41,828 nucleotides of DNA. Origin: a virus (lineage: Duplodnaviria > Heunggongvirae > Uroviricota > Caudoviricetes). Under the pieces are notes generated by a model. That model was not told where the DNA came from. It searched no databases and was given only the letters and a program-made list of their open reading frames with translations. The position numbers and the translations under genes are program-made. Location of the stretch: IMG/VR virus record IMGVR_UViG_2541047798_000006; one strand, given 5' to 3'. Positions 26,235 through 37,198 of the stretch are shown piece after piece; position 1 is the first letter of the stretch, and each line of letters starts with the position of its first letter.

Positions 26235-26570
26235 ATGAAGTGGATTGTGATTGATACAGTTATCCAGCCATCATGCGGAATATCTTTTTCAGTCATATGG
26301 AGTAAAATAAAATTAATAATCTGGTATCAATCGGATGCTTTCTTACCTCCTGAAAGTATATTTACACTGACTCACACAGGCATCATGCTCAATAACAAAG
26401 TGCTGCCTGTAACCATTTACAACGTAGTACCATTCAATAAAACATTCTGGAATTTAATCAAAAACAGCCAGGAATGCCCTACAAATACAGATAACGTATT
26501 GAATGAATGCTTTAATAACCGTTGCACTCTGCAAATATGTCCTTATGGACTAAAACAACAAAGTCCATAA
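26235..26570 (+). CDS. hypothetical AT-rich cargo protein, Cys-rich C-terminus
   Basis: 111 aa, AAGGAAAG SD 4 nt upstream of the ATG; opposite strand to late transcription; very low GC. Confidence 0.5.
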
Positions 26571-26604
26571 GGAGTTTACTCACATCTGACAAAATCAATA
26601 TAAA

Positions 26605-26626
26605 CAGCCCCTCCGGAGAGGGGCTG
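26605..26626. terminator. candidate bidirectional terminator hairpin between convergent cargo ORFs
   Basis: cagcccctc-cgga-gaggggctg 9-bp perfect stem. Confidence 0.45.
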
Positions 26627-27017
26627 GAGAGTGGCGCTATGTGCCATTGCATGGTGCCGGGTGCCTCCCGGTGAATTCAGTACCAGCACCTGAATCCGCG
26701 ATTATCCCATATACCTACTCGCTGATTGCCCCACCGCACAGGGGGATTCACCATGCCAGTTTCTTTTAACAAACTCCCCGCAAACCAGACAACAGTCAAC
26801 CGCCTGAATTGTGAAGTATTTAAAAATTTCTCCCGCTAACTGATACCCGGCTAACAGTCTGGCGTTTTCTTTTTCAGCAACGGGAAAGCAACAACCACCA
26901 CACCCGCCACCAGCACACCGTCAGCCAGCACTGACATTATCCGGCTGCTGCAATGCCATTCACAAAAACAGTAAGCAATCACTTTTTACCGTAACAGGTG
27001 ATAATCCAGATATGTAT

Positions 27018-27371
27018 CTACCCCAGATGAGTAATCCGAAGTTCATCCATACCACAGGTCCTGGCTATTCTGTTGTACTCCTGAACAAGAGCAAATAATT
27101 CTGAATTAGCAACCATGAACTCATCGCAAACCCTCTGTATAGCATCACTATTCAGAATAATAACGTCTCTTCCCGAAAGACGATCAGGAGTACAGAACAA
27201 AACTGTCAAACGGCTGAAGGCCTTTGCTCGTGCTGCATTGACTATATCAATACGCTGCCTAAGGATGAAACACCCCGACGCCTCATCAATATTCACTCTA
27301 CCCACACCATATGAATGATAAATATTTAATGCTGAAAAAACCATTAGACCGTATAACAAATATTCAATCAA
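27018..27371 (-). CDS. hypothetical AT-rich cargo protein
   Basis: 117-aa ORF (TTG in ORF track; in-frame ATG at 27344 gives 108 aa); no recognisable family. Confidence 0.4.
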   Translation of the reverse strand: MIEYLLYGLMVFSALNIYHSYGVGRVNIDEASGCFILRQRIDIVNAARAKAFSRLTVLFCTPDRLSGRDVIILNSDAIQRVCDEFMVANSELFALVQEYNRIARTCGMDELRITHLG

Positions 27372-27481: not shown

Positions 27482-27558
27482 TGGCGCGCTGTACTGGATT
27501 CGAACCAGTGACCGATTGCTTAGAAGGCAATTGCTCTGTCCGGCTGAGCTAACAACGC
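27482..27558 (-). tRNA. tRNA-Arg (anticodon UCU)
   Basis: 77 nt; acceptor GCGTTGT/ACAGCGC, T-loop GGTTCGAATCC, anticodon loop CTTCTAA, 3' GCCA. Confidence 0.85.
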
Positions 27559-27571
27559 TGAATACCGATAA

Positions 27572-27652
27572 TGGACCGCCATCGGGGACCCGCCCCCCGC
27601 ACCAACAACCCTGTTATCGTGTCGTCTGCTCTTCCTGATAAGCTAATGGCGG
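27572..27652 (-). other. degenerate tRNA-like element between the two tRNAs
   Basis: acceptor CCGCCAT/ATGGCGG with T-CCA tail, D-stem GCTT/GAGC, T-stem CGGGG/CCCCG, but non-canonical T-loop GGCGGGT and no foldable anticodon arm. Confidence 0.3.
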
Positions 27653-27659
27653 TTTGTGA

Positions 27660-27735
27660 TGGTGGCCCTTGCTGGATTTGAACCAGCGACCTGGCGATTA
27701 TGAGTCGCTCGCTCTCACCACTGAGCTAAAGGGCC
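27660..27735 (-). tRNA. tRNA-Ile2-like (anticodon CAU; could be read as Met)
   Basis: 76 nt; closely resembles E. coli ileX from memory; anticodon loop CTCATAA. Confidence 0.85.
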
Positions 27736-27771: not shown

Positions 27772-27800
27772 AATAAAAAACCCGCTCGGCGGCGGGTTGT
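27772..27800 (-). terminator. tR'-like intrinsic terminator downstream of the late promoter
   Basis: - strand cccgc-cgccga-gcggg followed by TTTTTTATT. Confidence 0.6.
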
Positions 27801-27845: not shown

Positions 27846-27873
27846 AATTTACCACAGATTCCGGAAAAATCAA
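27846..27873 (-). promoter_or_regulatory. candidate late promoter pR' (qut region) directly after Q
   Basis: - strand TTGATT, 16-nt spacer, TAAATT; position matches lambdoid late-operon architecture. Confidence 0.4.
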
Positions 27874-27878
27874 CCTTG

Positions 27879-28700
27879 TTACCTAGTTACCTTTTTTAAC
27901 TGCCGCTCAGCCCATGCTTCTTCAATATCAAACCGGGTCACCAGCGCATCATAGAATTTCTTAACTGTTTTTTCCCATGACGCGCGTGTTATCTGGTTTG
28001 TCACCTCGCATATAGCATTAAATGCCTCCGTTGATGGTAGTCTTTCATAGCCACGACCACCACAACGCTGGCAGTCTCTGATAACAGGCATACCACGTTT
28101 TACCGACTCTTCACGATGAATGGCGACACCACGCCCACGGCAATCCTTACAGGCGGTGGAAACCTCACCCTTTCCGCCACACTCCGGACAGGCAACTTTT
28201 ACCACCTCCCTGACTTTTTTCCATTCTTCCCAGTAAGACGGATACACACCTTTCGTACACTTTGCCCATACCGGCGGCTTACCATCCGGATACTGGACCT
28301 TGTTTGTAAAAACTACGCTTTCAATAAATTTTTCCCCATAGCAACAAGGGCACTGCTTTTTACTCGCTGCGCTGCGGGCATAATCCTCAAAAGCGTACGA
28401 AGCCATAATGCGCATCACTAACGGTTTTATTTCTGCCGGAAGTTTTCTCAACGCCGCCACACGATCGCACCGACTGAGTGCATAATCTGCCAGTAATTCT
28501 GTTGCCCGCGCCCTGTCATTCATACTGATGCCCATTTTCCCCAGGAACGCAGAAAACCCCATCTCAGCCCGATTCTGTGTCATGCCCTGCGCGGCCATCA
28601 CATCAGTGATACTCAGCGCATCTTTTGACGTTGAGGCCGATACATCGGTCAGGCCAGGGGATTTTGGGGAGTAGTATTTCGGTAAATCTTCCAGTTTCAT
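27879..28700 (-). CDS. Q: antitermination protein Q (zinc-finger, phage 82/QuuQ-like)
   Basis: 273 aa with CPECGGKG, CKDCRGRG, CQRCGGRG motifs; sits upstream of pR'/tRNAs/lysis genes. Confidence 0.75.
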   Translation of the reverse strand: MKLEDLPKYYSPKSPGLTDVSASTSKDALSITDVMAAQGMTQNRAEMGFSAFLGKMGISMNDRARATELLADYALSRCDRVAALRKLPAEIKPLVMRIMASYAFEDYARSAASKKQCPCCYGEKFIESVVFTNKVQYPDGKPPVWAKCTKGVYPSYWEEWKKVREVVKVACPECGGKGEVSTACKDCRGRGVAIHREESVKRGMPVIRDCQRCGGRGYERLPSTEAFNAICEVTNQITRASWEKTVKKFYDALVTRFDIEEAWAERQLKKVTR

Positions 28701-30946: not shown

Positions 30947-31102
30947 TTACTCCTCAGGTTCGTAAGCTGTGAAGACAGCGACCTCCGTCTGGCCGGTTCG
31001 GATTCGTACCTCGCAGAGGTCTTTCCTCGTTACCAGTGCCGTCACTATGACGGTTAAACAGATGACGATCAGGGCGATTAACATCGCCTTTTGCTGCTTC
31101 AT
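30947..31102 (-). CDS. hok: Hok-family type I toxin (HokD/RelF-like)
   Basis: 51 aa MKQQKAMLIALIVICLTVIVTALVTRKDLCEVRIRTGQTEVAVFTAYEPEE. Confidence 0.85.
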   Translation of the reverse strand: MKQQKAMLIALIVICLTVIVTALVTRKDLCEVRIRTGQTEVAVFTAYEPEE

Positions 31103-31650
31103 AGCCTGCTTCTCCTTGCCTTTCGGCACGTAAGAGGCTAACCTACATGTGTCTAGCATGAAATTGGCCTCAGATTAATGTTAAGCGTCTTGCAGGACGC
31201 GTAATGTTAACTGGGGCTTTTCTCTATCTGCCGTTGGTGTTATGCCCGAGGCAGATAGCCTCAAGCACCCGCAGCCATTCTACTTAACTACCGTTACCTC
31301 GCCAATGTGAAATCAGTCAGAAAGGCGATCCATAAGAACAATAGCAAGACAATAAATCGCCATTACAGCCGTAATAGCCAGCGCACATTTGAGAACCAGC
31401 ACCACAACCTCCTGTATTGGACGTACACCAGTCCTGATGAATATGAGGCTGTCTCGTCAGTGATTCAATACAACTATTGGGTATAGTTTCTCTGATTTTT
31501 TCTGTGGAAATGGGGCTCAACCACTAGTCATTTAATACGCAAAGTCCGATACAAGCTAACCTTCTAGTCCGCTTTGAGCGAAAAGCGGACGTTGGAAGTT
31601 TAAAACTCGCGAACTACTCAGCGTCCATTGATGCGTATTGTGTAACGTGA

Positions 31651-37140: not shown

Positions 37141-37198
37141 TTTCTGGTGACGTTTGGCGGTATCAGTTTTACTCCGTGACTGCTCTGCCGCCCTTTTT
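37141..37198 (+). ncRNA. dicF: DicF sRNA (ftsZ-targeting)
   Basis: tttctggtgacgtttggcggtatcagttttactccgtgactgctctgccgccctttttaa matches the DicF sequence from memory. Confidence 0.8.

Follow-up and report, generated by a model that had tools for sequence, protein, structure and literature searches.

Pseudo-tRNAs can have regulatory instead of decoding roles, as for example the tRNA-Other of Bacillus cereus, and tRNA-like structures can act as signals for RNase P, as for example mascRNA at the 3' end of MALAT1. The 81-nt element described here, which lies between two tRNA genes of a lambdoid prophage, is similar to tRNA-Other in being a gene-encoded tRNA shape, annotated as undetermined or pseudo, for which decoding is not expected; it differs in its unrelated sequence and in belonging to another phylum and another context. 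The similarity to mascRNA is that of a mimic of the acceptor and T arms able to direct RNase P cleavage without decoding, which for the element is a prediction, whereas mascRNA is eukaryotic and of unrelated sequence.

Closer systems are found in the lambdoid phages. In the 933W-type Stx2 phages (AP012540, LC567829), argN, the gene for a tRNA-Arg(UCG), is located between ileZ and argO. In phiP27 and in Stx2e prophages, the same slot is occupied by an 81-nt allele that has the length and the 28-nt middle (between the D and T stems) of the element, but keeps the canonical T loop TTCGAGT, which in the window reads GGCGGGT. This allele scores 26.4 bits against the Rfam tRNA model, for which the gathering score is 29, and its PGAP label in Stx2e strains is tRNA-OTHER (e.g. 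NZ_CP080233, 2269778-2269858). The 81-nt element is unannotated in the phiP27 record (AJ298298), and one survey of Stx phages counts just two tRNA genes in the Stx2e phages (PMC7366253), so that the middle element has been overlooked there.

The late-operon tRNA cluster and the arms of the element

The window is the whole stretch of 41,828 nucleotides that was analysed. Every feature of its tRNA cluster (27482-27735) and of the region upstream is on the minus strand, as listed here from upstream to downstream.

27879..28700, minus strand: Q antiterminator gene (PF03589 Antiterm, E=2.6e-55)
27846..27873, minus strand: promoter-like TTGATT-16-TAAATT, candidate pR', from sequence inspection
27772..27798, minus strand: intrinsic terminator-like hairpin AACCCGCCGCCGAGCGGGTT with a T-run (tR'-like)
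27660..27735, minus strand: tRNA-Ile2 (anticodon CAU) of the ileZ type (ARAGORN; Rfam RF00005, 72.5 bits)
27572..27652, minus strand: 81-nt tRNA-like element with acceptor, D arm, anticodon-like arm, T arm, and encoded CCA
27482..27558, minus strand: tRNA-Arg (anticodon UCU) of the argO type (ARAGORN; Rfam RF00005, 68 bits)

This is in agreement with the original prediction of an Ile2-like (CAU) and an Arg (UCU) tRNA in the context of an Stx-type lambdoid phage, as both tRNAs are called by ARAGORN and by Rfam, with a Q gene and a terminator upstream. Sequences identical to the two window tRNAs are annotated as tRNA-Ile (ileZ) and tRNA-Arg (argO) in Stx phages, in phiP27, and in RefSeq E. coli genomes, and the Q gene is annotated as an antitermination protein in near-identical public records. 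The promoter-like sequence begins 5 nt past the Q stop codon and has a TG upstream of the -10 hexamer; it scores 8/12, which is under the threshold of the promoter scan, and is put forward as a candidate pR' only. The gap between the two tRNA genes is 101 nt and contains the 81-nt unit. When aligned with Stx2 phages bearing ileZ-argN-argO, as had been proposed, the window region matches in one piece and the element takes the place of argN: Q lies upstream, tRNA-Ile2 precedes it, tRNA-Arg(UCU) follows it, and the spacers on both sides are similar.

Read on the minus strand, the element is CCGCCAT TA GCTT ATCAGGAA GAGC AG ACGAC ACGATAACAGG GTTGT TGGTG CGGGG GGCGGGT CCCCG ATGGCGG T CCA, and the coordinates 27572..27652 that had been assigned to it are exact. 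Its parts are as follows.

27646..27652, minus strand: 5' strand of the acceptor stem, CCGCCAT, pairing with ATGGCGG (27576-27582)
27628..27643, minus strand: D arm, GCTT ATCAGGAA GAGC, with an 8-nt D loop having GG and an A20-like A
27605..27625, minus strand: anticodon-like arm, ACGAC/GTTGT closing the 11-nt loop ACGATAACAGG
27583..27599, minus strand: T arm, CGGGG GGCGGGT CCCCG
27593..27598, minus strand: run of six G across the T stem/loop boundary, polymorphic in length
27572..27582, minus strand: 3' strand of the acceptor stem, ATGGCGG, discriminator T, and encoded CCA

The acceptor, D, and T stems and the CCA tail are indeed retained. All pairs are standard (acceptor 7/7, D 4/4, T 5/5), and the 7-bp acceptor stem, the D arm with G18 and G19, the 5-bp T stem, and the encoded 3' CCA are those of a tRNA. 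The T loop was also rightly described as non-canonical, as it reads GGCGGGT and lacks the T54-Psi55-C56-R57-A58 (TTCRA) consensus. The description of the spacer as having no foldable anticodon arm has to be abandoned, since a stem ACGAC/GTTGT of 5 bp (6 bp when counting a G.U pair) is present at the expected position and is homologous to the stem of the relatives. The canonical geometry of the anticodon arm, in which 5 bp close a loop of 7 nt, is lacking: the stem closes an 11-nt loop, and in the alternative given by the RNAfold MFE structure, an overlapping 7-bp helix CGAUAAC/GUUGUUG carries an AGG triloop. The 11-nt loop and the T loop that has turned into a G-run leave no normal tRNA elbow and no presented anticodon, and hence no decoding, so that the element cannot be a standard decoding tRNA.

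The tRNA finders are in line with these geometries. ARAGORN makes no call on the element, the flanking tRNAs being its only calls there, and the Rfam tRNA model RF00005 has no match to it at E<=10 (27540-27680), contrary to the possibility that a covariance model would fold the spacer as a standard tRNA. When the whole of Rfam 15 is searched at a permissive threshold, the element has matches only to eukaryotic families, at chance level, and neither the element nor its chromosomal relative described below is matched by tmRNA, YrlA-type, or other curated tRNA-like RNAs of Rfam 15. On the plus strand, a 40-aa ORF is all that the element offers, with no match to an RNA family, and its 27-nt middle has no second copy or complement within the window, when allowing up to three mismatches. 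The MFE z-scores of the element (-1.0 to -1.5) are unremarkable, as is that of the true tRNA argN (-0.9), and the case for the element is therefore one of homology and structure-aware scoring, not of thermodynamic stability.

Relatives in the Escherichia chromosome and in phages

Relatives were found when one genome of each species was scanned with the ends of the element alone as the query. The same body is found as a stand-alone chromosomal unit in E. coli, Shigella, E. albertii, E. ruysiae, E. whittamii, and Escherichia sp. E1V33, and the scan also matched two Salmonella subspecies and, after an ileZ-like gene, Lelliottia. In E. coli K-12, the following features are concerned.

NC_000913.3 345334-345414 (locus L234, 4335-4415), plus strand: unannotated 81-nt tRNA-like gene between yahL and yahM
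L234 4253-4435: xtpA (b4845), annotated ORF overlapping the tRNA-like gene
L234 4405-4650: yahM (b0327), the start of which overlaps the tRNA-like gene

The chromosomal gene and the element are both of 81 nt and share the acceptor stem, the 8-nt D loop, the AG link, the ACGAC/GTTGT stem, and the CCA, with 69 identities over 85 columns in the global alignment; the D stem differs solely at GCTC (chromosomal gene) versus GCTT (element). When the middles are compared, there are 22 identities over 32 columns, the differences being two substitutions and three gaps (4, 3, and 1 nt), and none of 5000 shuffles scores as well. For the Salmonella copy and for the phage type L248, the corresponding numbers are 39 and 226 of 5000 shuffles. 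The chromosomal gene differs from the element in its 7-bp stem, which closes the 6-nt loop CCAGGA, in its canonical T loop TTCGAGG, and in being a stand-alone gene with its own promoter-like TTGACA-16-CATAAT about 90 nt upstream. Its MFE fold is a clean cloverleaf, which ARAGORN calls an odd tRNA-Ser, and Rfam and PGAP make no call on it. A literature search, mostly of openly readable papers, gave no description of the element or of this yahL-yahM relative.

The chromosomal gene is present in 5169 of 5426 E. coli genomes (4822 records at 99% identity or higher) and is identical at 81/81 positions in E. albertii, E. ruysiae, E. whittamii, and Escherichia sp. E1V33, with 200-nt flanks that are about 70% identical or unalignable. 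In this comparison across species, 25 of the 81 nt are fixed by the search pattern; the remaining 56 are free and are identical too. The xtpA frame is broken in the other Escherichia species and in one E. coli, by a stop at codon 4, by the lack of an ATG, or by a frameshift, and the annotated ATG of yahM falls inside the 3' strand of the acceptor stem. The identity of the 81 nt amid diverged flanks, together with the broken xtpA frame, indicates that the conserved unit is an RNA or DNA element and not an ORF. Judged from this conservation, the chromosomal copy, at least, is under strong constraint, and signals that have been assigned to xtpA or yahM may stem from a tRNA-like RNA.

The origin of the chromosomal copies was also considered. 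For the E. coli copy, a remnant of ileZ upstream, as expected for a prophage relic, is not supported (z=-0.9 versus shuffles). The copy of Salmonella enterica subsp. diarizonae (L218, about 2680-2762), which is of 74 nt with the 6-nt loop CGGGAT, is the only one that is preceded by a recognisable decayed ileZ (z=6.6, 0/1000 shuffles), which points to an origin as a prophage relic in that case. The exact chromosomal-type middle has no match in the IMG/VR phages, so that a phage donor or sink of that form is not found there.

In phages, further members of the family are located after ileZ-like genes, with spacers of 1-13 nt to the neighbouring tRNAs. They share the body (acceptor CCGCCAT/ATGGCGG, 8-nt D loop, T stem CGGGG/CCYCG), and their anticodon arms vary widely. 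Some have the 6-nt loops CTCGCT, CTCAAT, or CACGCT, and AUU-like and UAA-like loops also occur among the ileZ-adjacent members (Lelliottia L227, 4607-4683, and the set L237, L248, L251, L254, L255, and L245). The same body is found with UGG, one base from the UCG of argN, in phage TL-2011c (L257, 601-677), with UUU in phage Evi (L258, 601-677), and as 'tRNA-Pseudo-TTG' in Yersinia phage YeP1 (L256, 1201-1278). When considering the distinct tRNA-like loop types, six of the nine are 6-nt loops, for two of them as given by the MFE fold.

A covariance model, R1, was built from eight relatives (the E. coli chromosomal copy, the two Salmonella copies, L237, L248, L251, L245, and Lelliottia), with the window-type alleles and argN excluded. 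It matches the element over its full length (positions 1-84) with all 21 pairs standard, at 66.4 bits and E=2.3e-16, the E-value being rough because of the short calibration; for the true tRNAs on either side, R1 gives 41.9 and 29.8 bits. With this score and the homology to the ends of argN, the opposite possibility, that the spacer has no tRNA resemblance at all, is overturned. The structural comparison of 17 sequences was done in the hand-made, N-padded alignment A3, which, like A5, was fitted to the proposed structure; these two were used instead of the MAFFT alignments A2 and A4, in which the anticodon region is not aligned structurally. In A3, 98% of the cells are paired, versus 31-57% in slid controls. 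The acceptor strand CCGCCAT, which is also that of argN, is invariant, and the anticodon-like helix is 98.8% paired, with all five pairs changing on both sides, mostly between subgroups; inside the tRNA-like subgroup alone, the covariation consists of wobble-compatible transitions only.

The element has the D arm of the family, with the 8-nt D loop ATCNGGAA, in which the fourth base is A, G, or T, and also its anticodon-like arm, with a link of 1-2 nt, a stem of the RYRAC/GTTGT type, and a loop that is usually not of 7 nt; Lelliottia is an exception in its stem and, together with L245, in having a 7-nt loop. The T loop TTCGAG(G/T), kept by all other members, is absent from the window allele (GGCGGGT). 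On the basis of these comparisons, we assign the element to an unannotated family of tRNA-shaped genes. The preservation of the chromosomal copy amid its diverged flanks suggests that this family is probably functional in some manner.

Prevalence and allele variation

About one-third of the complete E. coli genomes (1813-1863 of 5426) carry the element, nearly always without an annotation, and so do isolated phages such as mEp460, which, like phiP27, has the same middle. The element is therefore not restricted to dying prophages. The exact window allele is found in just 64 of the 1813 E. coli records carrying the element. For the neighbours, ileZ is 100% identical in 2776 of 3068 records and in 111 of 116 IMG/VR loci, and argO has a compensated T-stem change among related loci.

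In the IMG/VR sample, which is anchored on the neighbouring tRNAs and comprises 120 clusters, a window-type element is found in 31 and a middle gene that is positive with the tRNA finder, mostly Arg-UCG, in 86. When polymorphism is compared by sub-region in this unbiased subset (n=31 loci), the element is very uniform, which is compatible with constraint or with recent spread. Among 114 window-type copies of IMG/VR loci, the G-run varies from 4 to 18 G, and its length also differs among E. coli genomes; the T loop is 5-19 nt long among related window-type alleles. Changes of the acceptor stem that are uncompensated (ATGGCGA, ATGACGG, ATAGCGG, CCGGCAT) occur in 15 of the 114 loci, and U8G in 14. 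The longer G-runs travel with the U8G change. The L250 allele has the middle of the element combined with the T loop TTCGAGT, and its three transitions in the anticodon-like arm preserve the pairing.

In five loci (L016, L058, L059, L077, and L134), argO is truncated just past the anticodon loop, and the junction runs into sequence that, by eye, resembles an ORF which in the window follows argO at a distance of some 500 nt. The possibility that the truncated argO is an integration site was considered and set aside, as the junction, judged by eye, suggests a deletion of the 3' half of argO and not an insertion.

Possible roles of the element

We lean towards the view that the window element is a degraded allele, which is co-transcribed and excised like a tRNA, and is otherwise inert. 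In the late operon of the lambdoid prophage, it would come second in a group of three genes, after tRNA-Ile2 and before tRNA-Arg. Q would let RNA polymerase read through the terminator, by which the element would be transcribed from the Q-dependent late promoter together with its neighbours, and RNase P and 3' exonucleases would cut it out on account of its intact acceptor/T-stem helix and its encoded CCA. By the same excision, tRNA-Ile2 would gain its free 3' end and tRNA-Arg its free 5' end, and the freed RNA would have no further role in the window phage. The analysis shows what the element is, its homology, its compatibility with the structure, and its pattern in the population; its transcription, its processing, and its lack of function are what we infer here. 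The degraded state is indicated by the loss of the T-loop consensus in the window class alone, by the slipping G-run, and by the uncompensated stem changes. Against this view stand the conservation of the family, which is not junk, the retention of the body with different arms in several phage lineages, and the high prevalence, which extends to isolated phages; a co-option as a processing signal or sRNA, as originally suggested, is a plausible hypothesis.

It is possible, but less probable, that the element itself is a functional, non-decoding tRNA-like RNA under selection, acting as a processing scaffold for its tightly packed neighbours, as a decoy or competitor for a host or defence factor that binds tRNAs, or as a regulator similar to pseudo-tRNAs. 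A canonical T loop or anticodon loop is not required in such roles. The extreme conservation of the chromosomal relative is in agreement with a functional RNA, as are the recurrence of the same body with a loop not of 7 nt in unrelated phage lineages, the retained anticodon-like stem, in which the L250 transitions keep the pairing, the high prevalence that includes viable phages, and the short distance of 1-13 nt to the neighbouring tRNAs. Against this stand the variable length of the T loop and the loss of its consensus in the window allele class only, the uncompensated stem changes, and the covariation within the subgroup, which is limited to wobble-compatible transitions.

A proposal of wider scope, which we regard as rather improbable, is that the element belongs to an as yet unrecognised class of non-decoding RNAs, tRNA-shaped and functional, in Enterobacteriaceae and their lambdoid phages, having one body, a deliberately non-canonical anticodon arm (often with a 6-nt loop), and one copy that is fixed in the Escherichia core genome and masked by the ORF annotations of xtpA and yahM. 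If so, the phage copies would act in trans instead of being mere spacers, and they might titrate or mislead a host or defence factor that recognises tRNAs, or promote non-triplet decoding.

It is unlikely that the element is argN decayed in place, with a coincidental resemblance to the yahL-yahM gene. The slot and the flanking spacers are those of argN, and the two sequences agree base for base at both ends (the first ~20 and last ~28 nt), the acceptor stem, discriminator, and CCA being identical and the T stem the same; many argN alleles also have defects of the T loop and stems. The middle, however, differs. Whereas argN has a 9-nt D loop, the stem CCAGC/GCTGG, and the 7-nt loop CUUCGAA, and is called by ARAGORN, the element has an unrelated middle with an 11-nt loop, a G-run T loop, and no call. 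When its 28-nt middle is compared with two argN alleles, 3068 and 2673 of 5000 shuffles score as well, such that neither the argN arm CCAGC-CUUCGAA-GCUGG (anticodon UCG) nor a descent from it is supported, and the 8-nt D loop and the 2-nt link follow the tRNA-like relatives and not argN. The original description as a decayed third tRNA is retained in that the element is tRNA-derived, occupies the argN slot, and is non-decoding, but not as a remnant of argN itself, since its middle is at chance level with argN and is homologous to that of the chromosomal relative (0/5000).

A role at the DNA level, either as a conserved block at which mosaic lambdoid genomes recombine or through a variable G:C run that tunes the read-through into the late genes, is very unlikely. 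Mosaic alleles do combine either middle with either T-loop type, and the length of the G-run varies as in a contingency tract; but the run is not followed by a T-run and lies outside any promoter or coding frame, and recombination in conserved tRNA segments is a by-product that does not require selection. That the spacer is tRNA-like merely by chance, as could be supposed from the MFE z-scores, which are not significant, can practically be dismissed in view of the base-for-base homology to the ends of argN, the R1 match (E=2.3e-16), and the paired fraction in A3 (98% versus 31-57% when slid).

Taken by itself, the window element is of modest interest: annotation pipelines skip a tRNA-shaped relic within a phage tRNA cluster that is itself well known. 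The interest lies mainly with the family and with the chromosomal member, which does not vary. In lambdoid phages, the argN slot has one tRNA body with the arms UCG, UGG, UUU, and pseudo-UUG, with 6-nt loops, and with an 11-nt loop, an unusual evolutionary pattern in which the anticodon is switched or disabled on a fixed scaffold. The element has also led to an 81-nt tRNA-like gene in the chromosome of K-12, which is the same from one Escherichia species to the next and lies under two protein annotations. The nature of this gene could alter how expression data for xtpA and yahM are read.

Further features are observed elsewhere in the window. Directly downstream of argO there is a 117-aa ORF (27018-27371, minus strand) without a Pfam family; strain AR_0017, which is identical across the 101-nt spacer, has no gene annotated at the matching stretch. 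A 111-aa ORF (26235-26570, plus strand) appears to be the counterpart of the AR_0017 gene annotated as iraM (anti-adapter protein). Three RNAs score above the Rfam gathering score, STnc100 (26596-26785, minus strand, 130.5 bits), the sok antitoxin RNA (31097-31270, minus strand, 118 bits), and DicF (37142-37193, plus strand, 76.7 bits), and these are typical RNAs of Qin/lambdoid-type prophages.
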